A stretch of DNA of 64,000 bases, from contig CANQEI010000004.1 of NCBI GenBank assembly GCA_947594845.1, positions 29,890 to 93,889 of the forward strand. Reading direction: 5' to 3'. Of this stretch, positions 3,432 through 60,740 are shown piece after piece; position 1 is the first letter of the stretch, and the number at the start of each line of letters is the position of its first letter. Origin of the DNA: an uncultured Clostridia bacterium. GTDB taxonomy: Bacteria > Bacillota > Clostridia > TANB77 > CAG-508. The notes under the pieces were generated by a model that had not been told where the DNA came from, did not search any database, and saw nothing but the letters and a program-made list of their open reading frames with translations. The position numbers were made by a program, and so were the translations under genes.

Positions 3432-3832
3432 ATGCCTTAAATTATAAAATGGAATATTAATATAAAATAATCGAAAATAAAGGGTAAAAAATAGTATAGA
3501 TTTAAAAATAAAAAATCTAAAAAAGCAAAAAATGATTTTTTGAAAATAAAAAAGTTTTGTAAAAAAATAAAATATAAAAAATACACAAAATGCAATAAAT
3601 AAAGCATAAAATAGAAAACATAAAAAATAAAAAAATAAATAAAAAATAGAAAAATGGAAAAAATCATTTTTTGAAAAATAAGAAAATGTAATTAAAATGT
3701 AACACAAAAAAGCGTATACCTACAGTATCAAAGAATGAGCAATTTTGAAAAAAATGGAATTATTAAACCTGAATGCGTGAACCGGTTGAAATTAAAAGAA
3801 AAAATGAACAGAGTTACATAATTTACATATGT

Positions 3833-25500: not shown

Positions 25501-27695
25501 TAACAGATCTTAAAGGCACAAAATTATCAGCAGGAGATCAACTAGAAATGTTCATAACATTTGAAGTTGACAAAGACGGATATGTAGGAACAACTGATAG
25601 ACCAGAACTATTAGGAGAAAAGAATAATGTTGCTGAAATTGCAAATTACTCAACATTCTATCCAAATGGAAAAGTAGCTGGACTTATTGATAAAGATTCA
25701 GCTCCAGACAATATTGATTTGAATAGAAATGTAAAAGAGTGGTATGAAGATGATACAGAATCAGCACCAGCAACTAACATAGAACTATATGCTTATAACA
25801 GAGAAATTAATGGTACTGTTTGGGAAGACCAAGAAACTGTTAGCCTATTATATAATCAAAAAGTCGGCGATGGTTTAATGGAAGAACAAGAACCAGGTAT
25901 CAAAAATATTGATGTACAATTAGTAGAAAAAATTAAGATTGATGACATCGAATATGAAAAGATTTGGTCTGAAGACGACTTTAAAGGATTGACTGATGAA
26001 GAAAAGAAAGAATACAGATTAAAAGATGTTGAAACAGACGAAAATGGATATTACTATTTCAAAGGCGTATTAGCAGGAAACTATGTTGTAAGATTTAAAT
26101 ATGGAAATAAAGAAGCTAATATAAAATATAATGGTCAAGATTATAAAAATACTGCATATCAAGCAGAAATGCTAAATGAAGATGAAACAACAACATTAAA
26201 TAATGAATGGCAAGATTTAAAAACAAGTAATAAACTAAATGAAACTAGAGTATCAGATGCAAGAGATTATGAATTACAAAGAATGAAAGTAATAGCATAT
26301 TCTAAAAACATAAATAATCAAATAGGAACAGTATTAGAAAGTGCTGATAATCCTGATAAAAGCCATACAGAACTAATTGATAATACTCAAATGGTTGCTA
26401 ATACTGCAAAATTAAATATTGAAATTGAACATCAAGATTTCATTACTTATGGAACTGTTAAGAAGGTAAATGGATTACAAGAATTTACATACAATGTAAA
26501 AGATATAGACTTTGGATTAGAGAAAAGATCTGAAACCGCAATGGAACTTGACAAAAAAATATCAAAAATTTCTTTATATAAAGAAGATGGAGAAACTTTA
26601 TTATTAAATGCTATATATAATGAAGATGGAACAATTGATAGGACAAATCCAGAAGCAATGAGCTTGAATAAATTAACTCATGTTGATGAACAAAGTGATA
26701 TTCAAGGTTTAGATCATATCCATTCAGAAAGCGAATTTTTAAATGGAGCAACACTAAAAATTGAATACACAATAACTTTAACAAATAATTCAGAAGTAGA
26801 TTGGACAGGAAAAATTTCTAGATATGAAAAACCAGAAGAAATTATAGCAGAAGTAGAGAAACTAGAAAAATCTGATATATACGTATCAGGAGAATCAATC
26901 GAATATGGCGAATATGTAGGACTAAATTATTACAATAATAAGAACAATGATACTGACGAAATAGTTGAAACTAAGATAGAACAAATAATTGATTATATTG
27001 ACAATGATATTTCACCAGATGAAGATGCTAATTCACTAGTTGTAAATGAAAGCTGGAGAAAATTATCTTTAGATGAAATTAAAAATGGAAAAATGCTAGA
27101 TGAAAAAGTATACACAAATCTTAATGGAGAATTGACAATAGCAGATTCAAAACAAAGATCATTTATTGGTACAAATAAAAATAATATATTAGTTTCAGAA
27201 AGTGAAGAATATAATCCAAATGCAATTACTAAATTAGTACCTCAAAGTGCTGCTGAGGATTTAGACAAGAAATCAACTGGACAAATAAAAGTTGTAAGTA
27301 CAAAACAATTATCAGAAGAATCTTCAAAAGATGATGTTTATAATAATGTGGCTGAAGTATTAAGTTATTCAAATACAGTTGGTAGAAGAGATCCATTAGC
27401 AGTACCAGGAAATGCTGAAATAGCAAGAGGAGAATATGTTGCAGCAACAGGATATCAAAGCGGAGTACTAGTAATTGACTACGAAGGAGCAAAAGAAATA
27501 ACTATAGGAACATCAGAATTACACCTAAATGGTGAACGTGATACAGATGCATCAGATTATGTATCTATCGCAGAACCAACAGGTATTTCAATTAGAGAAT
27601 ACTATAGTAGAAATTACTATCCAATAATTGCATTAATTACAGGAAGTATATTAGTTGTAGCAATAATTGTAATAAAGAAAAAGATAAAAAAATAA
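22512..27695 (+). CDS. Giant secreted surface protein (1727 aa): signal peptide, Cys...Gln (TQXA-like) N-terminal domain, Cys/His cluster, two SdrD/Cna-B-type domains, C-terminal TM + KKKIKK anchor
   Basis: The start is 4 nt after the upstream stop, with SD AAGGAGGTG. SdrD-B-like units are AGEVWIDISADKKNPDFTDGKRENGEKGYKNAEVYIY...TDENGHYEIPNI and NGTVWEDQE...GIKNIDVQLV...TDENGYYYFKGVLAGNYVVRFKYG. The C-terminus is IAEPTGISIREYYSRNYYPIIALITGSILVVAIIVIKKKIKK. Confidence 0.85.
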   Translation: MMNNIKKKIISILTLLTLIAVAYAGYKVLATATNEMLSKDDSLPPSFPYIEYNTLISDPYILCCGKGITLNGMSRTVVRSGDRQQQEPYLTMNDIGKKIFEETQNASGDVTSNNFENPYGATTSRTIGFYTESDKKVASPMESYILAEASENLPSQGSSFYNVTDREYTGDLDAEAYFYNVEGTIIYGVNIDENSGEPQEYVTLDEETGKYYYIEITNSGEFFPYTYVQYAWWKTPAGGQSSQVQSTPFFKEAEAFEAYINKVAKRDEQGKIVTEQKTVTVNGETATVTVPVIDYKISGEDDKSQVYYDEDNGRYLIGPFVLHYYEESVTTDRGTVYFSNITDATIVSNLGAVDNSKWFFKYTDRDADDKSTFPHNNEEFYIVMDYIEDMRYLTDIRFDFRYMNAGGEYSELKGEYFNASWEPESKAIWCNEGAKNCACGGHHTSAQYDSNNNLTCSGGAKKCSHGYYHNHIVKWEYWLELESLDPQTSQPLAQVYVGVRWYEKANYSFKAEFPPDEPGPKEYIKLTIPMAGEVWIDISADKKNPDFTDGKRENGEKGYKNAEVYIYKTYKNSSGKIVKRELADIYDEDNETKLKYPIYTDENGHYEIPNINVPGSGDMIENGYTIAYDVEFKYDGQHYEASPALPTVNGDAQKYIKASKKAKKTYENDSLATENEKVREQFNEKFSEIYGGKAIDKNGDTTGYAKNGNNTLKLDYTSEEYTSPDNSNKRRLSTLTTLDKNEHIIEQYKMTATTGNTGIYFPVNHKISLDTADDVVELSVIENEDGKTTTYKTIYDYMLHINFGVKQREKADLSVFKDLYKAEILVNEKEITKTYNKYRDVEEEENKDALDIQLEACKIGKYTIGLYSSDYEYRSTVYETSQEVVKNMKAGTDLKVYLTYRIAVNNESQAEEGLDATINQINDYYDKTFTLIDSDISANVLDDNQNRVNKVVAESPYYRVVKADEDAEYTYWSDNMERFKCNDTNKKVNKDYKKLTITDLKGTKLSAGDQLEMFITFEVDKDGYVGTTDRPELLGEKNNVAEIANYSTFYPNGKVAGLIDKDSAPDNIDLNRNVKEWYEDDTESAPATNIELYAYNREINGTVWEDQETVSLLYNQKVGDGLMEEQEPGIKNIDVQLVEKIKIDDIEYEKIWSEDDFKGLTDEEKKEYRLKDVETDENGYYYFKGVLAGNYVVRFKYGNKEANIKYNGQDYKNTAYQAEMLNEDETTTLNNEWQDLKTSNKLNETRVSDARDYELQRMKVIAYSKNINNQIGTVLESADNPDKSHTELIDNTQMVANTAKLNIEIEHQDFITYGTVKKVNGLQEFTYNVKDIDFGLEKRSETAMELDKKISKISLYKEDGETLLLNAIYNEDGTIDRTNPEAMSLNKLTHVDEQSDIQGLDHIHSESEFLNGATLKIEYTITLTNNSEVDWTGKISRYEKPEEIIAEVEKLEKSDIYVSGESIEYGEYVGLNYYNNKNNDTDEIVETKIEQIIDYIDNDISPDEDANSLVVNESWRKLSLDEIKNGKMLDEKVYTNLNGELTIADSKQRSFIGTNKNNILVSESEEYNPNAITKLVPQSAAEDLDKKSTGQIKVVSTKQLSEESSKDDVYNNVAEVLSYSNTVGRRDPLAVPGNAEIARGEYVAATGYQSGVLVIDYEGAKEITIGTSELHLNGERDTDASDYVSIAEPTGISIREYYSRNYYPIIALITGSILVVAIIVIKKKIKK

Positions 27696-27710: not shown

Positions 27711-27750
27711 AATCTAGTTAGAAAATATTTCTAACTAGATTTTTTATTTT
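27711..27750 (+). terminator. Rho-independent terminator of the surface-protein operon
   Basis: Perfect 14-bp stem aatctagttagaaa (27711-27724) / tttctaactagatt (27728-27741), 3-nt loop, T-run. Confidence 0.85.
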
Positions 27751-27817
27751 GCATATATATTCACAAATTGGAAAAAATAGCAATAAAACCAAAAACAAGA
27801 GGAGAAGAAAAATTCCA

Positions 27818-30800
27818 ATGGAAAAATATAAATACTTAAATATAAAAGGAACCAATTTAGAAAAAGAGCAATTACAAAAGTATTTACAACAAATGGCAGA
27901 GGAACAGATAATAAGCAAAAATTCTGAAACCTTAACATATCCAATTGAAAAATTAAAAATAAATTATAGAAATATATTAAAAACATATGAAATATTAAAT
28001 GAGCATTTAAAATTAGGAATAAAAATACATTCTGCTGGAGAATGGCTACTCGACAATTTTTATATAATAGAAGAATCAATTAAAAACATAGAAAAAAATA
28101 TAAATTTAAAAAAATATGTTAAATTACCAGGATTAAGTAATGGCAAATATAAAGGATTCGCAAGAATATATGTGCTAGCTAGTGAAATTGCAGCTTTTAG
28201 TGGAGATAAAATTGATGAAGAGAAAATAATTGATGCACTTCAAAGCTATCAGACAAGGAAAATTTTATCAATGGAAGAAATTTGGAATATAGGTTTATTT
28301 ATTCAGATAGCAATAATACAGACTATTGCAGATATAAGTGAAAAAATTTATTTTTCGCAAATCCAAAAGTATAAAGTAGAAAATATATTTGAAAGATTAA
28401 TAGAAGCTAAAACAAATAAAGAACAAAGATTTAGAAAAAAATTTAAAAATAATAATTCATTAAAAATAAAAGATATAAATTATTCTTTTATTGAATATAT
28501 GTTGTATAAGCTTAGAAGAATTGGCAAAAGAGGAAATCAGTATATTGAAATATTAGAGAAACAAGTAAATAAGTTAGGCTTTAAAACAGATGAAATCGTG
28601 AAAAAGGAACATTTATATGTAGCAACACTTAAAATAAAAATAGGAAGTTGCATAACTAGTATAAAAGATATAAATAGAATTAATTTTCAAAAAGTATTTG
28701 AAAAAACTAATAAAACTGAAGAATTACTAAATGAAGATCCTTGCAAAGTATTTAAGAAAATGACAGAAGAAACTAAAGAGGTTTATAGAGAAAAGATAAA
28801 AGAAATATCAAATAAATTGAAAATATCTGAAATATATATAACAGAAGAAATATTGAAATTATCAAATAGATATAAAGACGAAAAAAATGTAAAAGAAAAA
28901 AGGAAATCACATGTAGGATATTATTTAATTGATGACGGAAAAAATGAATTAATGGAGGAATTAACTGAAAAAAGGATTAAGAAAAAACACAAGTTAAATC
29001 CAAAAACATACATTAATGGAATTATTTTTATATCACTCTTTATAGATCTTTTTTTTGTGTGGAATTTAAAAATGCCAGCATTAGTTAGCCTAATAACTGC
29101 AATCTTAATATATATACCAATCTATGAAATAGTAATAAAAATTATAAATTATATAATGTGTAAAATTATAAAACCAATAAAAATACCTAAGATAGATTAT
29201 GAAAATGGAATTGATGATGAAAATAAAACAATGGTAGTAATACCAACTGTTATAGATACAAAAGAAAAAATTATAAAAATGTTTAAAAAGATGGAAGTAT
29301 ATTATTTAGCAAACCAAGATAAAAACTTGTATTTTACCTTATTGGGGGATTGCACAAGTTCTGAAAAAGAAGTGGAAAAAATTGATCAAGAAATTATAGA
29401 ATGTGGAAAAAAAGAAGCGGAAAAATTGAATTCAATATATAAAACTAAAAATAAGTTTAATTTTTTATATAGAAGAAGAAAATGGAATCCAAATGAAGAA
29501 AAATTTCTAGGATGGGAGAGAAAAAGAGGTTTATTAATACAATTTAATGAACTTATATTAGAAAAAAACAAATCAGACTTTATTGCTAACACATTAGAAG
29601 ACTTTGATGAAAAAATAAAATATATAATAACATTAGATGCTGATACAAATTTAATTATTAATTCTGCACAACAACTAGTTGGGGCAATGAGTCATATCTT
29701 AAATAGACCTATAGAAGAAGAGGGTGTTATAAAAAAAGGATATGGAATAATGCAACCTAGGATTGGTATAACATTAGAAGATTCACAAAAAACAATATTC
29801 ACTAAAATATTTACATCAAATCCAGGTGTAGATTTTTATACAAATGCCATATCAGATTTATATCAAGATTGCTTTGGAGAAGGGATATTTACTGGAAAAG
29901 GTATATATGACTTAAATGTATATCAAAAAATACTAAAAAATAAATTACCAGAAAATAAAATATTGAGTCATGATTTGTTAGAAGGAAATTACTTAAGATG
30001 TGCTTTAGTATCAGATATTGTACTTTTAGATTCATTTCCAACTAAATATTTATCATATTTAGAAAGAGAAAATAGATGGATAAGAGGAGATTGGCAAATT
30101 TCTGGCTGGTTGGAAAGAAAAATAAACAATGAAAAAAATCCAATAAATAGTTTAAGTAAATTTAAAATATTTGAAAATTTAAGAAGAAGTGTATTACCAA
30201 TAACACAAATAACATTACTAATTTTTTCAATGCTAATAAATAATTTCTTTATAGCAATTGTTGTACTTTTATCTGTATTCACAGGCAGCATATTAGAGAT
30301 AATAAATAAAATAATTTTTAGAAAAAGCATAACAGAAGAAAAAATATATGCGAATAAAAAATTTGATAAAACAATTTCAGGTATAAAAGAATGCGTATTA
30401 AGAAATTCATTGGAATTTACATTTATTCCAACAACATCATTAAATTCTGCAACTGCAATAATAAAAACAATATATAGGCTAAAGAAAAATAAAAAGTTAT
30501 TGGAATGGAAAACGTCTGAAGAAGTTGAGAAAAAATCTATAGATTCTTTAGAGTATTATTGCAAAAAAATGTGGATTAATATAATAATTGGAATATTAAT
30601 GTTTGGAATAATAAATCCTTTTGGAATGATTATAGGAACATTATGGATTTTAGGACCATATATTGCATGGAATATAAGTAGAGATATAAGAAAAACAAAA
30701 ATAATAAATGAAAAAAGTAAAAAATATTTAATTGAAATTGCAAAGGAAACATGGATATATTTTAGTGAAAGTTTTAAAAGTGAAAATAATTTTTTGACAC

Positions 30801-33800
30801 CTGATAATTTTCAATTAGGGAGAAAAAAAGAATTTGTAAATAGGACTTCATCAACTAATATTGGGTTAGAAATATTATCAATAATTTCCGCATATGATTT
30901 AAAATTTATTAGCTTAGAAGAATGCATAAGTTCACTAAATAAAGTAATAAATACAATACAGAAATTAGAAAAATGGAATGGACACTTATACAATTGGTAT
31001 AACATAAAGACACTAAAACCATTGACTCCTAAGTATATATCAACAGTAGACAGCGGAAATTTTATTGGATATTTGTATTGCCTAAAAAATTTTTTAATAA
31101 GTAAAAATCAACCAGAAAAAATGATAGAAACAGTTAGCAAGATAATTGACGATACTGATTTTAAATTATTGTATAGTAACAAAAATAGATTATTTTCCAT
31201 AGGTTTTGATGTTGAAAATAACAAATTAACAGATTCTTATTATGATTTTTTAGCTTCAGAAGCAAGGCAAACGAGTTTTATTGCAATAGCCAAAAAAGAT
31301 ATAAAATATAAACATTGGACAAATTTAAGTAGAACATTAACATCTTCAAATGGATATAAAGGACTTATTTCTTGGTCTGGAACAGCATTTGAATACTTAA
31401 TGCCAAATTTAATAATGAAAGTTCCAGAAGGAAGTTTAATAGATGAATCTTGCAAATTTGCTAAAATCAGCCAATTAGAATATGCTAAAAATAATTCAAT
31501 ACCATGGGGAATTTCAGAATCAGCATATTCACTAAAAGATTTACAAAGTAATTATCAATATAAAGCATTTGGAATACCTGAACTAGGTTTAAAAAGAGGA
31601 CTAGAAGAAGAATTTGTAGTATCTCCATATAGTACTTTTTTATTTTTAGAATATGCTTTAGAAGAGGGAATAAAGAACTTAAAACAATTAGAAAAATTGG
31701 GTGCAAGAGGAAAATATGGATTTTATGATTCAATAGATTTTACCAAAGAAAGAATAAGAGAAAATAAAAAATATGAACTTGTAAAAACTTATATGGCACA
31801 CCATCAAGGATTAATATTGAACTCAATAAATAATATTATAAATAATAATATTTTATCAACAAGATTTAGCAATAATCCAGAAATTAAGTCAATAGAAATA
31901 TTATTAAATGAAAGAATGCCAGAATCAGTTATATTATCAAAAGAAAATTCTAACAAAGTAATAAAAGGAAAATATGTAAATAAATATGAAGATAAAGAAA
32001 TTGCTTACAAAAATGAAAATATATATAGAAGAGTAAATGCAATTTCTAATAATGATTACACATGCGTAATTGATACATCAGGAAAAGGATATAGTAAATA
32101 TCAGAATATTCAAATAAATAGATACAGAAATAGAAATAAAGAAAAAGAAGGAATTGCATTTTTTATTAAAAATCAGAGAAATAAAAAAGTATGGAGTACA
32201 TTTAAAAGCGACGAAATAAAGTTTACACAATATAAAGAAGAATTTACAAAAAGAGAAGATAATATAGAAACAAAAATGAAATTTTTTCTATCACCAGATG
32301 AACCTGGAGAAATTAGAAGTCTAAAATTAAAAAATCATGGAGTTTTGAAAGAAGAATTAGAAATATATAGTTATATAGAACCAATTTTATCAGAAAATAA
32401 AGATGATATAGCACATCCAATTTATAATAACATGTTCTTAAAATTAGAATATATAAAAGGAATAATAGTTATATCAAGGAAAATAAAAGAAAGAACAATT
32501 TATTTAGGAGTAAAATTACTAACTCCAAATGATGAAGAAACAGAAATAGAATTAGATAAAGAAAAATTTTGGGGAAGAAATTCAGAGTATCCTAAAAGTA
32601 TAATAGAAACAGATAATTTTACAAACGAATTAATAGAAACAGTAGAACCAATAGTTGCAATAAAAACAAAAATAGAAATAAGTCCGAAAGAAGAAAAAGA
32701 AATTGATTTATTATTATATATTTCAGAAAATAAAGAAGACCTAATAAATAAGATTGAAAGTATGAACATTGAAAATGTTAATAAAGATTTAGAATTAGCA
32801 AAAGCAAAAAGCGAAGAAGAAATAAAATTCTTAGAGATTAATGGAAATAAAATTGAAAACAATCATAAAATATTAGGACATTGCATAGAAAAAGACTTAC
32901 CTAAAACAATTGATATAGATTATAAAATAGAAAACGTTTGGAAATTTGGAATATCCGGAGATAATCCGATTATATTGGCTAAAATAAAAAATATAGAAGA
33001 AGCACATTTAGTCGAAGAACTTCTAGAGACTATTGAATTTTTTAATGTAAAAAACATAAGGATAGATCTATGTATATTAAATAATGAAAAAATAAGTTAT
33101 GAAACATTTGTAAAAGATGAAATAAACGAAATTATAAAAAATCATAGATTAGAATATCTAAGGAATAACCAAATTTTTGTATTTAACAAAAATGAATTAA
33201 CTGAACAAGATATACAAATAATACAAAGTATTTCATGTATGTGCTTTGATGGAGAAATCGGAGGAGTAAAAAACAATTTAGATGAAATTGAAAACATAGA
33301 AATAATCAGTGCAACACAAGAATACGAAAAAAGTAGTAAGAATGAAGAAGTAGAAAAAAGTAATCTAATATATGATAACTCGTTTGGAGGATTTTTAAAT
33401 GATGAATATGTAATAAATGTAAATAATGAAAATGTACCTCCACGAGTATGGAGCAACATTATTGCAAATAAAAAAATAGGAACAGTAATTACAGAAAACT
33501 TAGGAGGATACACTTGGATAAATAATTGTAGATTAAATAGAATTACAACTTGGGAGAACGATAGTATCAGAGATTTTTCAACAGAAACATTTTATATAAA
33601 AGATATAGATGAAAAACAATATTGGACATTAGGGTCAGAACCAAAATATAATTCATATCAAGTAAAATATGGACAAGGTTATGCAAAATTTATTCAAATC
33701 AATAACAATCTTGTTCAAGAAAATACAATATTTATACCAATTAATGGAGAAAGTAAAATAAATCATATTAGCATAAAAAATAAACTACCAAGTAAGAGAA

Positions 33801-35680
33801 AAATCACTATTTATTATGCTCTTGATTTAACAATGGGAGAAACAAAAGAAAAAAACTTAGGAAAAATTAGAGCAATAAAAGATAAAAACAATATTATAAT
33901 AGATAATGTGTGTAAAAGTGAATTTGATGATAAGATAAAAATAACATCTGATTTTAAAATAAATTCATATACTAACAGCAAATATGAATTCTTTAATAAA
34001 GACATGGAAGCTATTGGAATAAATAAAAAAATATTAAAATGTTTCGGAAATATTTCACAAGGAAATGAGATAGTTATAGAAATACCAATTGAACTTGAAG
34101 AATATGAAAAAAAGCTAGTAAATATAATTATAGGAAACGATGCCGAAAAATATTTAAACAATAATGATGTAGAAAATGAATTTGAAAATGTAGAAAAATA
34201 TTGGCGTGAAAAAACTGGAATTGTAAAAATAAAAACACCATCAGAAAAGATAAATTTATATATGAACAAATGGCTTGTATACCAAACCATTACAAGTAGA
34301 TTAAATGCCAAAACTGGGTTTTATCAATCTGGAGGTGCAACCGGATTCAGAGACCAATTACAAGATTCTATAGGAATGAAGTGGATTGATGAAGAAATTT
34401 TGAAACAGCAAATAATAGAAGCTGCTAAACACCAATTTATCGAAGGAGATGTAATGCATTGGTGGCACACAAAAAACAAATCAGGAATTAGAACAAACAT
34501 ATCAGATGATTTATTGTGGCTACCATATAGCGTATTAGAATATTTAAAATTTACAGAAGATGCGAGTATATTAGATGAAAAAATTGAATATGCAAAAGGA
34601 ATTGAACTAGAAGGAGAAAAGGAAAAATATGATAAATTTGAATATACAAAAGAAAAGGAAAGTCTATATCAACATTGTATGAGAGCAATTGAAAAATCTC
34701 TAAACTTCGGGAAAAATGGATTCCCTAAAATCGGAACTGGAGATTGGAATGATGGATTTAACAAGATTGGGCATAAAGGTCAAGGAGAAAGTGTATGGCT
34801 AGGTTTCTTTCTATATGATATATTAAGAAAATGGGAAAATGTCATAGAATATAAAAATGAGAGTAAAGAAAAATATAGTAATATAAGAAAAGAATTAAAA
34901 AAATCATTAAATGAAAATGGCTGGGATGGATTTTGGTTTAAAAGAGCAATAACAGATGACGGAGAAATTATCGGAAGTAGCAAAAGTAAAGAATGTAAAA
35001 TAGATAGTATTACACAGAGCTGGTCAGTAATTTCAGAAGCGGGAAATAATGATAAAAAGTATATAGCAATAGAATCTGCTAAAAAATACTTAATAGACGA
35101 AGAGAATAAAATAATAAAACTATTAACACCTCCATTTAATGGAGAAACTAATCCAGGATATATACAAGAATATCCTAATGGTGTAAGAGAAAATGGAGGG
35201 CAGTATACACATAGTGCAATATGGCTTATTATGGCTTTCGCAAAATTAGGTATGATAGATGAAGCAGTAAAGTATTTAGAAATGATTAATCCAATAACAC
35301 ATACAGAAACAAAAGAAGGAGTAATTAAATATAAAATAGAGCCATATGTAATTCCTGGAGATGTTTATAATAATAAATTTATGAATGGTAAAGGAGGATG
35401 GAGCTGGTATACTGGTTCTAGCAGCTGGTATTACAAAGTATGCTTAGAAGATATTTTAGGAATAAAGAGAGCAGGAAAAAAATTGTTTATTCCAAATAAA
35501 ATTCCAAATAATTGGGATAAATTTGAAATACAATACAGATATAAAAGTAATTTATATAATATAAAAGTAATGAAAGATAATACAGAGAAATCAATAAAAT
35601 ATAATGGTGAAAAAATAAATACAGAATACATTGAGTTAAAAGATGATAACAAAATTGAAAATATTGATATAAAATTGTAA
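27818..35680 (+). CDS. Cyclic beta-1,2-glucan synthase (Cgs/NdvB/ChvB) homologue, ~2620 aa: N-terminal domain, GT84 glycosyltransferase, TM helices, (alpha/alpha)6 cyclisation-type domain, C-terminal GH94 phosphorylase-type domain
   Basis: Family motifs, read in order. N-terminal domain: GEWLLDNFYIIEE. GT84: VVIPTVIDT, ITLDADTN (29635-29643), GIMQPRIG, LSHDLLEG (29966-29986), ENRWIRGDWQ (30074-30097). Cyclisation-type domain: RTSSTNIGLEILS, STVDSGNF, SWSGTAFEYLMP, PWGISESAY, YMAHHQGL. GH94: GFRDQLQDS, HWWH, GTGDWNDG (34733-34756), NGGQYTHSAIW, SWYTGSSSWYY. I place the start at ATG 27818 because the ATG at 27749 in the ORF track lies inside the upstream terminator T-run. Confidence 0.85.
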   Translation: MEKYKYLNIKGTNLEKEQLQKYLQQMAEEQIISKNSETLTYPIEKLKINYRNILKTYEILNEHLKLGIKIHSAGEWLLDNFYIIEESIKNIEKNINLKKYVKLPGLSNGKYKGFARIYVLASEIAAFSGDKIDEEKIIDALQSYQTRKILSMEEIWNIGLFIQIAIIQTIADISEKIYFSQIQKYKVENIFERLIEAKTNKEQRFRKKFKNNNSLKIKDINYSFIEYMLYKLRRIGKRGNQYIEILEKQVNKLGFKTDEIVKKEHLYVATLKIKIGSCITSIKDINRINFQKVFEKTNKTEELLNEDPCKVFKKMTEETKEVYREKIKEISNKLKISEIYITEEILKLSNRYKDEKNVKEKRKSHVGYYLIDDGKNELMEELTEKRIKKKHKLNPKTYINGIIFISLFIDLFFVWNLKMPALVSLITAILIYIPIYEIVIKIINYIMCKIIKPIKIPKIDYENGIDDENKTMVVIPTVIDTKEKIIKMFKKMEVYYLANQDKNLYFTLLGDCTSSEKEVEKIDQEIIECGKKEAEKLNSIYKTKNKFNFLYRRRKWNPNEEKFLGWERKRGLLIQFNELILEKNKSDFIANTLEDFDEKIKYIITLDADTNLIINSAQQLVGAMSHILNRPIEEEGVIKKGYGIMQPRIGITLEDSQKTIFTKIFTSNPGVDFYTNAISDLYQDCFGEGIFTGKGIYDLNVYQKILKNKLPENKILSHDLLEGNYLRCALVSDIVLLDSFPTKYLSYLERENRWIRGDWQISGWLERKINNEKNPINSLSKFKIFENLRRSVLPITQITLLIFSMLINNFFIAIVVLLSVFTGSILEIINKIIFRKSITEEKIYANKKFDKTISGIKECVLRNSLEFTFIPTTSLNSATAIIKTIYRLKKNKKLLEWKTSEEVEKKSIDSLEYYCKKMWINIIIGILMFGIINPFGMIIGTLWILGPYIAWNISRDIRKTKIINEKSKKYLIEIAKETWIYFSESFKSENNFLTPDNFQLGRKKEFVNRTSSTNIGLEILSIISAYDLKFISLEECISSLNKVINTIQKLEKWNGHLYNWYNIKTLKPLTPKYISTVDSGNFIGYLYCLKNFLISKNQPEKMIETVSKIIDDTDFKLLYSNKNRLFSIGFDVENNKLTDSYYDFLASEARQTSFIAIAKKDIKYKHWTNLSRTLTSSNGYKGLISWSGTAFEYLMPNLIMKVPEGSLIDESCKFAKISQLEYAKNNSIPWGISESAYSLKDLQSNYQYKAFGIPELGLKRGLEEEFVVSPYSTFLFLEYALEEGIKNLKQLEKLGARGKYGFYDSIDFTKERIRENKKYELVKTYMAHHQGLILNSINNIINNNILSTRFSNNPEIKSIEILLNERMPESVILSKENSNKVIKGKYVNKYEDKEIAYKNENIYRRVNAISNNDYTCVIDTSGKGYSKYQNIQINRYRNRNKEKEGIAFFIKNQRNKKVWSTFKSDEIKFTQYKEEFTKREDNIETKMKFFLSPDEPGEIRSLKLKNHGVLKEELEIYSYIEPILSENKDDIAHPIYNNMFLKLEYIKGIIVISRKIKERTIYLGVKLLTPNDEETEIELDKEKFWGRNSEYPKSIIETDNFTNELIETVEPIVAIKTKIEISPKEEKEIDLLLYISENKEDLINKIESMNIENVNKDLELAKAKSEEEIKFLEINGNKIENNHKILGHCIEKDLPKTIDIDYKIENVWKFGISGDNPIILAKIKNIEEAHLVEELLETIEFFNVKNIRIDLCILNNEKISYETFVKDEINEIIKNHRLEYLRNNQIFVFNKNELTEQDIQIIQSISCMCFDGEIGGVKNNLDEIENIEIISATQEYEKSSKNEEVEKSNLIYDNSFGGFLNDEYVINVNNENVPPRVWSNIIANKKIGTVITENLGGYTWINNCRLNRITTWENDSIRDFSTETFYIKDIDEKQYWTLGSEPKYNSYQVKYGQGYAKFIQINNNLVQENTIFIPINGESKINHISIKNKLPSKRKITIYYALDLTMGETKEKNLGKIRAIKDKNNIIIDNVCKSEFDDKIKITSDFKINSYTNSKYEFFNKDMEAIGINKKILKCFGNISQGNEIVIEIPIELEEYEKKLVNIIIGNDAEKYLNNNDVENEFENVEKYWREKTGIVKIKTPSEKINLYMNKWLVYQTITSRLNAKTGFYQSGGATGFRDQLQDSIGMKWIDEEILKQQIIEAAKHQFIEGDVMHWWHTKNKSGIRTNISDDLLWLPYSVLEYLKFTEDASILDEKIEYAKGIELEGEKEKYDKFEYTKEKESLYQHCMRAIEKSLNFGKNGFPKIGTGDWNDGFNKIGHKGQGESVWLGFFLYDILRKWENVIEYKNESKEKYSNIRKELKKSLNENGWDGFWFKRAITDDGEIIGSSKSKECKIDSITQSWSVISEAGNNDKKYIAIESAKKYLIDEENKIIKLLTPPFNGETNPGYIQEYPNGVRENGGQYTHSAIWLIMAFAKLGMIDEAVKYLEMINPITHTETKEGVIKYKIEPYVIPGDVYNNKFMNGKGGWSWYTGSSSWYYKVCLEDILGIKRAGKKLFIPNKIPNNWDKFEIQYRYKSNLYNIKVMKDNTEKSIKYNGEKINTEYIELKDDNKIENIDIKL

Positions 35681-35752
35681 AAAAAACTTGTAGAAAAATT
35701 TCCTTTATGATATATATTATGTTATAAATATGAGAAAGAAAGGGGTATCCTT

Positions 35753-36505
35753 GTGGAAGAAGTAGATATTGGAAGAGATTTTAATCGAAAAACTATATTA
35801 GTTGTTGATGATGAAGAAAGTATAGTTGATTTATTAGTATACCACCTACAAAAAGAAGGATATGACACATTACAAGCATACGATGGAGTAACAGCTGTAG
35901 AAATGGCATTAAAAGAAAAACCAGACTTAATATTATTAGATGTTATGCTTCCAAAAATGGACGGAATAAGTGTATGCAAAAGAATTAGATATTCGCTAAA
36001 TGTGCCAATATTAATGATATCTGCAAAAGATACAGAACTAGATAAGGTTGTAGGACTTGAAATGGGAGCAGACGATTATATAACAAAACCATTTCAACAC
36101 AGAGAAGTTATGGCAAGAATAAAAGCAAACTTAAGAAAAGCTGAATTAGTCGCACAAGCAGAATTAAAGAGCGAAAATTCAGAGAATGAAGGAAATATAA
36201 TAACTGTAGGAGATTTAACTCTTGATTTAAAAAAGGTTGAAGCTAGAGTTAAAGGAGAAATCGTAGACTTAACAATAAAAGAATTTGAAGTTTTAAAATA
36301 CTTGGCAACACAACCAGGAGAAGTTGTAACTAGAGAAACTCTTCTAAAAAAAGTTTGGGGATACGACGATTATGTTGGAGCTATTCGTACGGTAGATGTT
36401 ACAGTAAATAGAATAAGAGATAAAATAGAAAAAGATAAAGCAAATCCAAAAATATTAGTAACTAAAAGAGGCGTAGGCTATTATGTTATTGGAGATAAAC
36501 AATAA
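35753..36505 (+). CDS. OmpR/PhoB-family response regulator (WalR/PhoP-like)
   Basis: Receiver ILVVDDEESIVDLL...PDLILLDVMLPKMDG...ISAKD and winged helix LTIKEFEVLKYL...RTVDVTVNRIRDKIE...VTKRGVGY. GTG start follows AAAGGGG. No terminator separates it from the upstream giant gene. Confidence 0.92.
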   Translation: MEEVDIGRDFNRKTILVVDDEESIVDLLVYHLQKEGYDTLQAYDGVTAVEMALKEKPDLILLDVMLPKMDGISVCKRIRYSLNVPILMISAKDTELDKVVGLEMGADDYITKPFQHREVMARIKANLRKAELVAQAELKSENSENEGNIITVGDLTLDLKKVEARVKGEIVDLTIKEFEVLKYLATQPGEVVTRETLLKKVWGYDDYVGAIRTVDVTVNRIRDKIEKDKANPKILVTKRGVGYYVIGDKQ

Positions 36506-36511
36506 AAATAA

Positions 36512-36550
36512 AAAAAATGCATTGGGAGATTTCTTCTTAATGCATTTTTC
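36512..36550 (+). terminator. Terminator after the response regulator
   Basis: aatgcatt (36516-36523) / aatgcatt (36539-36546) stem with a 15-nt loop and a T-run. Confidence 0.55.
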
Positions 36551-36555
36551 GTTAT

Positions 36556-36600
36556 AAAAAGGGGAGGGGGACTCTAACAGGTTAGAGTCCCCCTATTTTT
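36556..36600. terminator. GC-rich bidirectional terminator at the 3' end of the inserted minus-strand gene
   Basis: 13-bp arms gggggactctaac (36566-36578) / gttagagtccccc (36581-36593). T-runs are present on both strands. Confidence 0.8.
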
Positions 36601-36614
36601 ATGAATGTTTCGCG

Positions 36615-37946
36615 CTAGTTAATCAAAGTTCCGTTAGAATCAAATGAGTACCACCGACCATCAATCAGCTTATTTCCAGTCACGTAACAGCCTGTTTCCG
36701 GATCAACATACTTCCAAAAATAGCCGCTTTTTATCCAGCCAGTCAACAGCCTGCCATCCTTTTGCAAGTAGTAGTAATTTTTACCATCGGCAGATTGAAT
36801 AGACGTATCTTTGGCGAGAACGCCATCAGAGTCGAAGTAATACCAACTTCCATCAATTCTCTGCCAACCAGTAAGCATCATACCGGAAGAATTCAAGTAA
36901 TATGTCTTGTTATTCCAGTCGAGCCAACCAGTAACTCTCCTACCATCCTCGCAAAGGAAGTACCAATTTGTGCCGTCCCAATGCCACGTATTTTTCAACA
37001 TAGCACCACTATTTTCGAAGAAATACCAGTAACCCTCTCGAGTAAGATACCAGCCGGTAATCATACTTCCGTCATCTCTGAACCCATAGGCCTTACCATC
37101 AATGACGTAAAATTTACCAGCTAAATAGGATCCTTGCCAATAGTAGTACCAATTTCCATCAATAAACTTCCAACCGTCGGTGGAATACTTATTAGATGGT
37201 GTTACGTTCGGCGTAGGTGTGCAACCCGAATTATAGAAATCCAACTCATCCCAGTAGTAGAATTCATCAGATTCGACATATTCGGAATCACGTAACACGC
37301 CAGAATACTTTGCCTTGGGAACTGCCTTGACTTTGAATGTTACATCTTCCCAATAGTAATCGGATGACAACAGCCAGGAAGAAAGATCATAGTAGTTGTC
37401 AGAGATGTTTTCAGCAATAACCTTTCCACTATTACCATTTTTGCAAAGCCTGATGGTATAGTTTACTTTATTGCTTACTTTAGACCATCTCGCCACACCA
37501 TTCTCTTCCCAGTAAAGATCCGATGGGGAATATGCATAGCCTCTGACTTGGTATAGAAGTGTAACTGAAATGCTACCGTCATCCAAATACTCAAAAGAGT
37601 CATATTCACCATTTGTGACAGTAAATGAACTCTTTTTTAGTGAGCTTTTGAAGAAGTAGCCCGACTTAGGAGAAATTGTCACAGTTACATAAACAAAATC
37701 TCCTGGCTCGCAGTAAGCCACATTTGATTCCCAGTATACGCCACCATAGGGGATGTAATACCCAGTTCCACTTACAGTAACTGCTGGATTGCCGGATGTC
37801 TGTCCCCAGTCGTTCTTTTCAATCCGAATGTTTACTTTCGAGATTGAACTGGCAGCATATGCCGTTGCCGATGTTGCGGTGGAAAAAAGCATGAACACCA
37901 TTACCACGCAACTTAAACCAATGAAAAACCGCTTTGTACCCTTCAT
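36615..37946 (-). CDS. Secreted protein with about nine C-terminal cell-wall/choline/glucan-binding repeats (CW_binding type) and an uncharacterised N-terminal half; foreign codon usage
   Basis: Signal peptide MKGTKRFFIGLSCVVMVFMLFSTATSATAYA. The C-terminal ~190 aa hold ~20-aa repeats of the form GW..(D)G.WYYF...G.M.TGW (e.g. TGWQRIDGSWYYFDSDGVLA, TGWLDWNNKTYYLNSSGMMLTGW). Codons CGG, CTG, GCC, ATC, TTC and TAC are frequent, whereas neighbouring genes end almost every codon in A/T. Confidence 0.85.
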   Translation of the reverse strand: MKGTKRFFIGLSCVVMVFMLFSTATSATAYAASSISKVNIRIEKNDWGQTSGNPAVTVSGTGYYIPYGGVYWESNVAYCEPGDFVYVTVTISPKSGYFFKSSLKKSSFTVTNGEYDSFEYLDDGSISVTLLYQVRGYAYSPSDLYWEENGVARWSKVSNKVNYTIRLCKNGNSGKVIAENISDNYYDLSSWLLSSDYYWEDVTFKVKAVPKAKYSGVLRDSEYVESDEFYYWDELDFYNSGCTPTPNVTPSNKYSTDGWKFIDGNWYYYWQGSYLAGKFYVIDGKAYGFRDDGSMITGWYLTREGYWYFFENSGAMLKNTWHWDGTNWYFLCEDGRRVTGWLDWNNKTYYLNSSGMMLTGWQRIDGSWYYFDSDGVLAKDTSIQSADGKNYYYLQKDGRLLTGWIKSGYFWKYVDPETGCYVTGNKLIDGRWYSFDSNGTLIN

Positions 37947-38013
37947 AACTCTACTCCCCTTTCATTTTTATTTGGCGAAACCGCCATCATAGAAGTTATT
38001 GGGTTACATAATA

Positions 38014-38042
38014 ATTCTATCACAAGAGGAATATAAAGTCAA
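38014..38042 (-). promoter_or_regulatory. Sigma-A promoter of the inserted repeat-protein gene
   Basis: On the minus strand: TTGACT (38042-38037), 17-nt spacer, TGaTAGAAT (-10 hexamer 38019-38014). A ~70-nt UTR follows with SD GAAAGGGGAG. Confidence 0.6.
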
Positions 38043-38160
38043 TTTGATGATTCACTAAAATCATATATTGTCAAGCATAAAAATAGAAGTAATACTTTTT
38101 TAATTATTCTAAAAAGAAAATGTTACCTTATTACATATGCATTACAACTCTAATAAATAC

Positions 38161-38188
38161 TTGAATATTACACAAATAATGATATAAT
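38161..38188 (+). promoter_or_regulatory. Separate promoter for the histidine kinase
   Basis: TTGAAT (38161-38166), 16-nt spacer, TGaTATAAT (38183-38188), 28 nt before the ATG at 38217. Confidence 0.55.
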
Positions 38189-38216
38189 AAGGGAAACGCT
38201 TGCGTAGGAGAAAAAG

Positions 38217-39680
38217 ATGTTAAAAAGTACACAAATAAAAATTGTTTTGATATTTATGATACTTGGAATTTTTATGTTATCAATTCAAGGAATAATATTT
38301 TCAACACAGCTACAAAAAGTATCATTAGAGACAAATGGAAATGAATTAATTGTAGAAACAATAAAGTCACAAATACATCAACAACAAGTAATAACAATTG
38401 TTTTAATAGTAATATTTACAATCGTTTCTATACTCGTTGGAATATTCGTTGCTAAAACTATACTAGAACCGATGTCAAAACTTACTAAAAGTGCTGAAAT
38501 AGCAGCTAAGGGTGGACAATATCAGATAAAGTATTTAGGAGAAGGAAAAAATAAAAACGAAGTAGATGAATTAGCAAAAGCATTCAATTTAATGCACAAT
38601 GAGTTAAACGAAAATTTAAAAGAAGTATCAAGGCAGAAAAAACAAATAGAAACTATTTTATTGCACATGAATGATGGAATATTAGCTTTTAATATAAACG
38701 GCGATATAATCCATAAAAATAGTGCAGCAGACAAACTATTTGGATTGACAGGGAAAGAAAAGAATTTTAATGAAATATTTGATAAATTAGATGTTAATAT
38801 AAATTTAGAGAAAATAATTTACTTAGAAAATTGGACTTCAACTCAGGAAAGAATATCTGTAGGAGAAAAGACACTAAACTTATTTTTTGCAGCTTTTAGA
38901 GATGAGGCAGAAAGACCAGGAGGAGCAATAGTTGTTATACAAGATATTACTGAGCATGTTAAACTAGATTCAATGAGGACAGAATTTGTTGCAGATGTAT
39001 CACATGAATTAAAAACTCCAATTACTTCAATAATGGGATATGCAGATACGTTATTAGAAGATGACTGTGATAAAGCAACAACAGAGAAATTTTTAAAAAG
39101 AATATCAACACAAGCTAATAGAATGGCTGTATTAGTTAGCGATTTATTAACATTATCAAGATATGATGCAGACATGATAAAAAATAGAGAAGAAGAATTT
39201 GACTTAGGAGAATTAGTAAAAAATACATATGACACCTTATCCTTCGAAATAGAACAAAAAAACCAAAAAGCAGAATGTTTTGTAACAGCTGATGTACCAC
39301 ATGTAAAAGCTGATAAAGCTGGAATAGAAAGAGTTGTTACAAATATCTTAACAAATGCAATAAAATATACTCCAGAAAATGGAGAAATAAAGATATATGT
39401 TGGTTTTGTCTATAATGATGCATATATTAAGGTAATAGATAATGGAATTGGAATTCCAGAAGAAGACTTAGAAAGAGTATTTGATAGGTTTTATAGAGTA
39501 GATAAAGCACGTACAAGAGAAATGGGAGGAACAGGATTAGGCTTATCAATTGCAAAAGAAATATTAGAAAAGAACAACTCAAAAATAAATATAAATAGCG
39601 AATTGGGAAAAGGAACAGAAGTAGTAATAAGAATACCTGCAATGAAAAGTGAAGACAATTCTGCTAATAAAACTGTTTAA
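38217..39680 (+). CDS. Sensor histidine kinase (WalK/PhoR/ResE-like; 2 TM, HAMP, PAS-like, HisKA, HATPase)
   Basis: TM helices at residues ~10-30 and ~58-80, H-box VSHELKTPITSI, N-box TNILTNAIKYTP, G1 DNGIGIP, G2 GGTGLGLSIAKE. Confidence 0.92.
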   Translation: MLKSTQIKIVLIFMILGIFMLSIQGIIFSTQLQKVSLETNGNELIVETIKSQIHQQQVITIVLIVIFTIVSILVGIFVAKTILEPMSKLTKSAEIAAKGGQYQIKYLGEGKNKNEVDELAKAFNLMHNELNENLKEVSRQKKQIETILLHMNDGILAFNINGDIIHKNSAADKLFGLTGKEKNFNEIFDKLDVNINLEKIIYLENWTSTQERISVGEKTLNLFFAAFRDEAERPGGAIVVIQDITEHVKLDSMRTEFVADVSHELKTPITSIMGYADTLLEDDCDKATTEKFLKRISTQANRMAVLVSDLLTLSRYDADMIKNREEEFDLGELVKNTYDTLSFEIEQKNQKAECFVTADVPHVKADKAGIERVVTNILTNAIKYTPENGEIKIYVGFVYNDAYIKVIDNGIGIPEEDLERVFDRFYRVDKARTREMGGTGLGLSIAKEILEKNNSKININSELGKGTEVVIRIPAMKSEDNSANKTV

Positions 39681-49090: not shown

Positions 49091-49759
49091 TTAATTCAAA
49101 ATTGTTGTATTAGAAGCACCATTTCCAACAATTTCAGTCATCAAACTATTCCAAGTAATGTTACCAATTTTACCGTCCTGTGATAATCCATTATTTCCCT
49201 GATATTGAATAACAGCTTCTCGAGTTTTGTTTCCAAAAATTCCATCTAAGCCACCTGTATTCAAACCTAAAGTATTTAATGCATCTTGGGCTATTAAAAC
49301 ATATATACCTCGACTTCCAAATTGAGTTAATGGATAACCACTTGCAATCCATCGATCATCGAAATGGACCCAACGGGGAGTGTCAGCAGAAGGCTCGATG
49401 TATCTCCAATAACCTGAAGCTCGTGCCAAATTTCGCATATAATCGCGTTGCTGAGCATTTAAATTTTGGGCAACATCAAAAGCAACACCAGCATAATGTT
49501 GAGATAAAATTCCATGCCCACCTTCCCATGGACGCTTAAAAGCAAAACCAACAAAAATTGGTGCACCATATAAAGTTCTAAAATTATTCCAAGACTGCAT
49601 AGTTCGTCTATCTGTCCATAAAATATTAGAATTACTAGAGCCTCTAAACTCTTTTACTGTTAATGTACGATTTACATTATAAGGCATAGCCTCATTTTCA
49701 CCCTTATAATATGTTTCCATCCTATTAGAATTGTTATTATAAACAAGTATTTTAGCCAT
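49091..49759 (-). CDS. LAS/M15-family zinc peptidoglycan peptidase fused to a C-terminal PG_binding_1 domain; no signal peptide (endolysin-like)
   Basis: Zinc ligand motifs SQHYAGVAFDV (SxHxxGxAxD) and WVHFD. The C-terminus AQDALNTLGLNTGGLDGIFGNKTREAVIQYQGNNGLSQDGKIGNITW is a peptidoglycan-binding repeat. Arg is mostly CGN here, against AGA in neighbouring genes. Confidence 0.8.
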   Translation of the reverse strand: MAKILVYNNNSNRMETYYKGENEAMPYNVNRTLTVKEFRGSSNSNILWTDRRTMQSWNNFRTLYGAPIFVGFAFKRPWEGGHGILSQHYAGVAFDVAQNLNAQQRDYMRNLARASGYWRYIEPSADTPRWVHFDDRWIASGYPLTQFGSRGIYVLIAQDALNTLGLNTGGLDGIFGNKTREAVIQYQGNNGLSQDGKIGNITWNSLMTEIVGNGASNTTILN

Positions 49760-60254: not shown

Positions 60255-60266
60255 TAAAATTGAAAA

Positions 60267-60301
60267 GACCCGCGCACTATAGTGTAAGTACGCGGGTTTT
60301 T
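60267..60301 (+). terminator. GC-rich terminator after fabI at the edge of the GC-rich island
   Basis: acccgcg (60268-60274) / cgcgggt (60291-60297) stem enclosing an inner palindrome cactatagtg, followed by a T-run. Confidence 0.65.
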
Positions 60302-60356: not shown

Positions 60357-60740
60357 TCAGATGACCATCAAGATACCACGGAGCCACTGCGGAACGACCG
60401 GACCTCCGGCAGTGATGGGACGATGCGCATCAGCACGCAGGAAGCGGTTAATGTGCGTCTTAATGGTAACCGTACCGATGAAAGCGATGAAAGCCGAACC
60501 GAGAATCACGAGCATGCCCTCAAAGGGAGCCAGAATATCGATAGCGACCATGGCGATCACAGCAAGGAACATAAGACCCCACCAGCGATTCTGATTGTGA
60601 GCAGTCAGCGCCAAGGCGACGAAAGCAAAAATCAGGAGAACGCAGAAGGAGGTGACGGCACCGCTAGCAGCAAAGAGCGCTGCGAAAAACGGGTCGAGGA
60701 GCGAAAACACTCCGAGGAACAGCAAGATGAAAATGACCAT
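60357..60740 (-). CDS. Small 4-TM membrane protein of unknown function (127 aa) in a ~55% GC island
   Basis: SD GGAGGG lies 9 nt upstream of the ATG. There are four hydrophobic segments (VIFILLFLGVFSLL, VTSFCVLLIFAFVALALTA, WWGLMFLAVIAMVAIDIL, MLVILGSAFIAFIGTVTI). Codons end overwhelmingly in G/C (gtc ttc atc ctg ctc gcg ...). My hand count gave 33 G+C in the 60 nt at 60301-60360. Confidence 0.7.
   Translation of the reverse strand: MVIFILLFLGVFSLLDPFFAALFAASGAVTSFCVLLIFAFVALALTAHNQNRWWGLMFLAVIAMVAIDILAPFEGMLVILGSAFIAFIGTVTIKTHINRFLRADAHRPITAGGPVVPQWLRGILMVI

Follow-up and report, generated by a model that had tools for sequence, protein, structure and literature searches.

A 64,000-nt stretch of contig CANQEI010000004.1 from an uncultured Clostridia bacterium (hereafter the window) carries on its plus strand the genes of a response regulator (RR) and a histidine kinase (HK), and between them, on the minus strand, a single gene with an open reading frame (ORF) of 443 aa. 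We interpret this arrangement, with a probability of about 0.78, as a foreign surface-protein cassette that was gained once and long ago and that landed in an already split, WalRK-like locus without rewiring it. A sequence-only reading of the same stretch had also recognized a foreign, opposite-strand, single-gene insertion, and had proposed that it uncoupled the transcription of a regulator and a kinase of the kind normally adjacent and co-transcribed. Our analyses bear out the insertion, whereas the premise of an adjacent, co-transcribed pair fails in this lineage.

A compositionally foreign gene in the regulator-kinase spacer

The RR stop and the HK start are exactly 1711 nt apart (Table 1). 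Across 36600-37950 the G+C fraction is 0.41-0.45 compared with 0.22-0.33 in the flanks, with an abrupt switch, and the G+C fraction at third codon positions (GC3) of the inserted gene is 0.439, compared with 0.08-0.19 (mean ~0.13) in the other ORFs of the window (42 others were called), among which a GC-rich minus-strand ORF at 60357-60740 is the sole other exception. The codons CGG and CTG occur three times each in the insert and not once in ~3380 flanking codons, which use AGA and TTA, and in tetranucleotide profile the insert (z = 5.9) deviates more than any other 1.3-kb segment of the window. The positions of the two signalling genes, the length of the gap, the G/C-rich third positions with their CGG and CTG codons, and hand counts of 24, 24 and 26 G+C per 60 nt over 36601-36780 had all been given in the sequence-only reading; positions, gap and counts proved exact, the codon usage agrees, and the k-mer comparison that it had proposed also sets the gene apart.

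One genome per species was scanned for syntenic loci, which yielded 13 (L001-L013), all from uncultured gut Clostridia metagenome-assembled genomes (MAGs) of 26-29% G+C that share the gene order giant GH94 gene, RR, HK, signal peptidase and holB. No gene lies between RR and HK in 10 of the 13, nor in any of 8 further metagenome loci. A homologue of the insert is present only in L002 and L003, rabbit-gut MAGs of the two closest sister species, where it occupies the same position in the same orientation, so the event is not private to the genome in which it was first seen. A relative carrying the gene in host-like codon usage had been named as an observation that would speak against horizontal acquisition; the two orthologues have a GC3 of 0.42 and 0.31, versus 0.11-0.15 in their neighbouring genes.

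The inserted gene also has its own transcription signals. At the left end of the cassette a bidirectional, GC-rich terminator (z -5.6 on the minus strand) would end the insert transcript, and its hairpin and the motif AAAAAGGGGARGGG are common to the window, L002 and L003. The predicted insert promoter is kept as TTGACT-17-TATAAT in L002 and L003, and the stretch between this promoter and the putative kinase operator described below is likewise common to the three. Taken as a class, promoter-like matches are no more frequent in this AT-rich region than chance would give (22 versus 20.4 expected); the insert promoter and the kinase promoter are each kept in relatives. A small hairpin in the 5' untranslated region (UTR) of the insert has one compensatory change, with a G-C pair in the window and an A-U pair in L002 and L003, and may be an mRNA-stabilizing 5' stem-loop, though shuffling reveals no unusual stability (z -0.8). 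The canonical insert promoter and the two terminators in the gap, both of them real hairpins with T-runs, are as first described. Taken together, composition, own signals and the empty site in relatives support a compositionally foreign, horizontally acquired single-gene islet whose promoter and terminator came with it.

At the site we found neither a transposase or integrase gene nor a tRNA, and neither terminal inverted repeats nor a target-site duplication above chance level, in agreement with the absence of mobility genes and direct repeats reported earlier. An Rfam search of the window and five related loci returned one tRNA, distant from the site, and no known RNA family in any spacer. 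Two junction repeats were considered and rejected, namely an 11-nt perfect inverted repeat (36593-36603 / 38076-38086) as a terminal repeat and a 21-22-nt imperfect direct repeat (36502 / 38077) as a target-site duplication; both are at chance level, ~4 such matches being expected by our estimate in AT-rich DNA, and neither is kept in L002 or L003.

As the window and its relatives are all MAGs and the composition switch is abrupt, a chimeric join of a foreign fragment during assembly or binning would produce a similar picture. This explanation is exceedingly improbable: the same arrangement occurs in three independent assemblies, host sequence bounds the cassette on both sides within one contig, and in all three genomes the kinase promoter block runs on directly from the cassette promoter region.

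Transcription units of regulator and kinase

Comparison with uninserted relatives shows that RR and HK are never adjacent, with a spacer of 167-375 nt in all 10 uninserted syntenic loci. In the window the RR gene is followed by a predicted intrinsic terminator (-15.9 kcal/mol, z -6.0) whose stability none of 200 shuffles reached, and a terminator-like hairpin with a T-run follows RR in all uninserted relatives. Nine of the 10 uninserted loci have script scores between -10.6 and -19.4 kcal/mol; in L004, where the script score was weak, a long palindrome seen by eye serves. The RR gene has a predicted promoter, assigned from consensus and from its conservation as CTTGTAC...TGATATAAA in 12 of 12 relatives examined, a form similar to that of the kinase promoter.

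The 90 nt 5' of the kinase ATG are strongly conserved. In the 11 loci aligned over this block (the window and 10 of the 13 relatives), 8 of which are without the insert, the -35 element CTTGAA and the extended -10 element TGATATAAT are invariant, and the 8 metagenome loci show the same block. L013, whose HK is only 60% identical, was not aligned and has a related promoter visible 3' of a terminator. As the kinase promoter is conserved in uninserted relatives it predates the insertion and is ancestral, and these predicted signals indicate that RR and HK were already separate transcription units across the whole clade before the insertion. Furthermore, the insertion lies 5' of the putative operator and promoter of the kinase, between two terminators, and leaves these signals intact; the two-component system was therefore not rewired.

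These results bear directly on the proposal that a recent insertion split a contiguous, co-transcribed RR-HK operon, after which a new kinase promoter arose. The gene is indeed foreign and does lie between RR and HK, and the kinase does own an extended -10 promoter at the position described. That promoter is not new, however, having the same sequence in the 10 aligned relatives; uninserted relatives already have the spacer and the terminator-like hairpin, so there was no contiguous pair to uncouple; and the insertion is common to three species. We consider an operon split highly improbable.

Directly 5' of the kinase -35 element lies a perfect match to the WalR consensus TGTWAH-N5-TGTWAH (as quoted in PMC9210968), which on the plus strand reads ATTACA-TATGC-ATTACA. 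In this clade it takes the form TGTAAY-N5-TGTAAY, and 12 of 13 genomes have it at a fixed offset from the ATG (-87 to -89); the repeat is intact in 11 of the 13 relatives, degenerate in L001 and absent in L013. Among the 12 loci tabulated, TTACA is kept in 23 of 24 half-sites while the N5 spacer occurs in 7 versions, and conserved half-sites around a variable spacer are what protein binding to a direct repeat would leave behind. The repeat is centred ~-57 from the predicted transcription start of the kinase gene, where OmpR-family regulators typically bind when they act as activators. Because a conserved repeat is here combined with a WalR-like DNA-binding domain, we infer that the regulator, in its phosphorylated form, probably controls the transcription of its own kinase through this repeat. 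A further-reaching interpretation, in which the spacer is a regulated node where RR binds the repeat and activates the kinase alone, and in which the insert, its divergent promoter ~90 bp from the same operator, was captured into the cell-wall regulon, seems doubtful to us; if true, it would mean kinase-only autoregulation, unlike the canonical, non-autoregulated wal operons. The only other exact match to the consensus in the window (3687-3703, plus strand), ~215 nt 5' of nrdD (anaerobic ribonucleotide reductase) in a very A-rich intergenic spacer, is probably a chance occurrence.

The RR-HK spacer also holds other elements. A palindromic, dispersed repeat of ~150 nt, resembling a miniature inverted-repeat transposable element (MITE), occurs there once in L001 and twice in L003, where the two copies flank the cassette terminator; it is found elsewhere in L003 as well, but the window lacks it and Rfam gave no match to it. 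In L004, L010 and L013 the spacer is occupied by different long palindromes or structured inserts. The spacer thus tolerates insertions.

Table 1. Features of the regulator-kinase locus; positions are those of the window except in the last two rows, where they refer to the related locus named
Feature	Position	Strand	Description
RR promoter (predicted)	35688-35716	+	TTGTAG-17-TATATA with TG; lies just 3' of the stop codon of the giant GH94 gene (2643 aa)
RR ribosome-binding site	35739-35745	+	AAAGGGG
RR gene	35753-36505	+	250 aa, GTG start; Pfam Response_reg and Trans_reg_C
RR intrinsic terminator (predicted)	36513-36549	+	16-pair fold with an 11-bp perfect inverted repeat inside, then T-run
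Cassette terminator, bidirectional	36565-36594	both	GC-rich, left end of cassette, would end insert transcript; 13-14 bp stem, -24.3 kcal/mol
Inserted gene	36615-37946	-	443-aa ORF; GC 0.417, GC3 0.439; Choline_bind_3 109 bits
Choline-binding-type repeat domain	36618-37181	-	residues ~256-443; Pfam PF19127, PF01473
Two tandem FN3-like beta-sandwich domains	37227-37853	-	residues 32-240; AlphaFold model
Signal peptide	37854-37946	-	residues 1-31 (...SATAYA/ASS); read from sequence
Small hairpin in insert 5' UTR	37973-37986	-	kept in all 3 cassettes
Insert promoter (predicted)	38014-38042	-	TTGACT-17-TAGAAT, TG-extended; consensus match and conservation
WalR-type direct repeat (putative operator)	38130-38146	-	TGTAAT-GCATA-TGTAAT; exact match to TGTWAH-N5-TGTWAH
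Kinase promoter (predicted)	38161-38188	+	TTGAAT-16-TATAAT, TG-extended; conserved block
HK gene	38217-39680	+	487 aa; Pfam HAMP, PAS, HisKA, HATPase_c
MITE-like repeat, L001	7690-7864
MITE-like repeat, L003	6291-6395, 6518-6608, 14747-14897

Descent and source of the cassette

A neighbour-joining tree of five flanking-gene proteins has the topology (L001,(WIN,(L002,L003))), where WIN is the window, and the insert-bearing clade is recovered in 199 of 200 bootstrap replicates. The identities of the insert proteins (61% between L002 and L003, 50% between the window and L002, 44% between the window and L003) follow this topology. The ratio of nonsynonymous to synonymous substitution rates (dN/dS) of the insert is 0.11 for the L002-L003 pair; the insert is functional and under purifying selection, and its evolution outpaces that of the flanks several-fold. 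These comparisons are most simply explained by a single gain in an ancestor common to the window organism, L002 and L003, followed by vertical descent. A rough two-state estimate from four-fold degenerate sites would place the G+C fraction at such sites (GC4) of the ancestral insert at ~0.5 at the split of the three species, which would fit a GC-richer donor; the estimate is noisy, being based on host pairs at ~55-90% of saturation and on a GC4 of 0.30 for the insert and 0.06-0.10 for the host. Dating the insertion by comparing synonymous divergence (dS) between insert and flanks was also tried and was uninformative, both being near composition-specific saturation.

A different history, in which the spacer is a recombination hotspot and the cassette was gained or swapped separately in each of the three genomes, or passed by allelic exchange through the conserved flanks, from a pool of diverged alleles, would account for the low identity of the insert proteins (44-61%) beside that of the flanking proteins (74-98%), and for a GC3 that is still high despite near-saturated synonymous divergence. 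It would also fit the other elements collected by the spacer (the MITE-like repeat in L001 and L003, the palindromes in L004 and L010) and the islets that the protein family forms at other loci in other AT-rich genomes. We nevertheless regard it as unlikely, since the insert proteins differ from one another as the species tree predicts; the three cassettes agree in promoter, UTR hairpin, terminator motif and right-junction sequence; the relative four-fold saturation between L002 and L003 is ~0.76 for the insert, near the 0.44-0.72 of the flanks; and a dN/dS of 0.11 together with fast protein evolution is usual for surface proteins.

A further alternative is that the gene is ancestral to the locus, intrinsically atypical in composition, and was deleted where it is now absent. 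GC3 is elevated in every AT-rich host examined, so that a gene-specific constraint is possible in principle, and L001 and L003 have extra spacer elements in common. On the tree, however, this history requires at least 3-4 independent precise losses versus a single gain, no remnant of the gene was detected by tblastn or blastn in the uninserted spacers, and in a GC-rich genome described below the gene simply matches its neighbours. In addition, GC3 exceeds 0.19 only in the two GC-rich minus-strand ORFs of the window, so selection on GC3 is not a trait of the host. We judge ancestral presence to be very improbable.

Outside this clade the closest homologues of the inserted protein (34-52% identity) are all in AT-rich genomes, where they form GC-rich single-gene islets at unrelated loci. 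Those of L050 and L051 lie between an MBOAT gene and pyruvate:ferredoxin oxidoreductase genes (GC3 0.36-0.375 versus 0.13-0.20), that of L055 between scpA and ytfJ (0.437 versus 0.10-0.15), and the homologue of L048 has a GC3 of 0.24 versus 0.09. Distant members, at 25-30% identity (about 27%), are located beside flagellar genes in a genome of 53% G+C, where a GC3 of 0.665 equals the 0.62-0.67 of the neighbours and indicates native composition. The native appearance in a GC-rich genome and the foreign islets in AT-rich ones suggest that GC-richer Firmicutes are the family's native hosts and that it has reached AT-rich gut Clostridia in more than one transfer. The donor search that the sequence-only reading had proposed thus pointed to a distant setting in which the family looks native and gave no close donor. 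A tblastn search of phages and plasmids with the N-terminal module returned no match, hence no vector, and an exact-protein contig look-up of the insert also returned none; illegitimate recombination after DNA uptake is our guess as to the route of transfer.

Several observations weigh against our account as a whole. Synonymous sites have come close to saturation in the insert as well as in its flanks, which makes the timing argument rough, and the persistence of a GC3 of 0.31-0.44 demands a donor GC3 of ~0.5 or higher. The homologues found with native composition reach only 25-30% identity, those nearest in sequence (45-52%) being themselves in AT-rich hosts, and since the uninserted spacers can be aligned only in the promoter block, the exact insertion junctions cannot be reconstructed. 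As for the putative operator, the window holds 2 matches to the WalR consensus versus 1.3 expected by chance, so that the significance of the repeat derives solely from its conservation; the repeat is inverted relative to the kinase gene; and canonical wal operons reportedly lack autoregulation (PMC9210968).

Our preferred history, an old single gain into a locus already split, would run as follows. A self-contained cassette, extending from ~36555 to ~38100-38125 and consisting of terminator, gene, 5' UTR and a strong sigma-70-type promoter, would have been acquired on a single occasion by the ancestor of the three species, its source a Firmicute of markedly higher G+C. It would have entered the spacer between the RR terminator and the kinase control region, where its own bidirectional terminator would block read-through both ways, and would since have descended vertically under purifying selection, evolving fast and drifting in part toward the composition of the host.

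The encoded proteins and comparison with known systems

A signal peptide opens the inserted protein: its N-terminus is basic, residues 7-21 form a hydrophobic helix in the model, and an A-x-A site is present. The two FN3-like beta-sandwiches that follow (residues 32-240) are modeled with a predicted local distance difference test (pLDDT) score of 91.4 and a predicted template-modelling (pTM) score of 0.78; this N-terminal module has no Pfam family match, and its Foldseek matches, to the FN3 tandems of tissue factor and class-II cytokine receptors, are weak (E ~3e-4, TM score 0.33-0.37). A disordered linker connects it to the repeat domain, which scores 109.4 bits against PF19127 (cut-off 27) and 51.4 bits against PF01473 (cut-off 20.5), comprises about eight or nine choline-binding-type repeats and forms a beta-hairpin solenoid (pLDDT 85-95 over residues 256-443). 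Foldseek matches it to Pce/CbpE (2bib, E 4.5e-18) and also to CbpF, LytA, LytB and the CROPs of TcdA/TcdB; E-values for Pce, CbpF, LytA, LytB and the TcdA CROPs range from 1e-18 to 1e-11. No catalytic domain was found in the protein. Most likely, judging from this domain architecture, it is secreted, anchored non-covalently to the wall and has a role in binding or adhesion. Its wall ligand may be choline-teichoic acid, a different polymer or a glucan.

The best NCBIfam model for RR is YycF (NF040534) at 290.5 bits, under the cut-off of 340; the best PDB matches of its DNA-binding domain are VicR, WalR and YycF, and the recognition helix RTVDVTVxRxRxKIE is retained. For HK the best model is WalK, with 349 bits versus a cut-off of 725 and covering only model positions 166-593, followed by PnpS and PhoR; the VicK model gives 221 bits versus a cut-off of 680. 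The topology of HK, read from its sequence, is a transmembrane (TM) segment, a loop of ~27 aa, a second TM segment and then HAMP, PAS, HisKA and HATPase_c. The pair is WalRK-like, not a certified orthologue, a wording we adopt because of the sub-cut-off scores, the ~27-aa external loop and the lack of accessory genes.

The surrounding locus is rich in cell-envelope functions. Directly upstream of RR, the gene at 27749-35680 (plus strand) encodes a 2643-aa protein that combines glucoamylase-like, GH94 supersandwich and GH94 catalytic domains and resembles cyclic beta-1,2-glucan synthase, and 5' of it are two genes for putative surface proteins of ~1700 aa with DUF11 and SdrD_B domains (17426-22507 and 22512-27695, plus strand). 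The signal peptidase gene follows the kinase gene directly in the window, L001, L002 and L003. In the outgroup species, L004-L013 and L057-L064, an additional gene lies between the two (for example at 9476-10252 in L005 and 9456-10355 in L009); its product, of 260-300 aa, is a single-pass membrane protein in which a long low-complexity region is acidic and the T/K-rich tail is basic. This protein has no Pfam match and could be a kinase accessory protein that was lost from the others.

Elsewhere in the window, the minus-strand ORF at 60357-60740, already mentioned for its GC3 (0.64, with a GC of 0.54), is a second GC-rich single-gene island between plus-strand genes. It has a good ribosome-binding site and a GC-rich bidirectional terminator (hairpin at ~60264-60300), and encodes a predicted multi-pass membrane protein of 127 aa with no Pfam match and no homologue but itself among 5.8 billion proteins. 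This island resembles the RR-HK insert in lying on the opposite strand, with its own signals and without a mobility gene. The highest GC3 among the ordinary genes of the window, 0.19 (GC 0.35), belongs to a minus-strand gene at 49091-49759 for a 222-aa PG_binding_1 protein.

As a horizontal transfer the event described here is ordinary, in that it left the signalling genes and their signals intact. Surface-protein genes are common transfer cargo. The cassette is similar to small genomic islets in its sharp compositional deviation, sporadic presence, intergenic site between convergent and divergent signals and possession of its own promoter and terminator. Unlike strain-specific islets, it is fixed in three species under purifying selection, and the mobility hallmarks of islets (tRNA, integrase, direct or inverted repeats) were not found here, nor was a phage or plasmid homologue of the N-terminal module. 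The recurrence of this family of FN3-FN3-wall-binding-repeat proteins as GC-rich, promoter-to-terminator islets without mobility genes, at different loci of several AT-rich gut lineages, suggests repeated selection for acquiring a surface function. The protein shares its signal peptide and C-terminal aromatic repeats of ~20 residues with choline-binding proteins (CbpF, Pce, LytA) and with the clostridial CROP or "glucan-binding YG repeat" proteins; unlike in those proteins, the functional module consists of two FN3-like beta-sandwiches without a Pfam family and not of an enzyme or toxin domain.

The two-component system itself is best compared with WalRK (YycFG/VicRK), which governs cell-wall homeostasis in Firmicutes, where it is essential for viability and controls peptidoglycan hydrolases. 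The likeness lies in the best-scoring models (YycF and WalK), the DNA-binding domain, the HAMP-PAS-DHp-CA layout of the kinase and the presence of a perfect TGTWAH-N5-TGTWAH repeat. Unlike WalRK, both proteins are below the equivalog cut-offs (290 versus 340 and 349 versus 725), the kinase has only its short extracytoplasmic loop without the Cache/PAS sensor domain of WalK, and walH/I/J-type accessory genes are lacking. Unlike in the co-transcribed wal operon, a predicted terminator after RR and a dedicated kinase promoter are present in the window and all 13 relatives, and, unlike in wal operons, for which autoregulation is reported to be absent (PMC9210968), a WalR-type box precedes the kinase gene. 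This clade of AT-rich gut Clostridia would thus keep a WalRK-like pair as two predicted units with a conserved WalR-type box before the kinase gene, which, if the box is functional, would be a departure from the textbook wal operon that is co-transcribed and not autoregulated.

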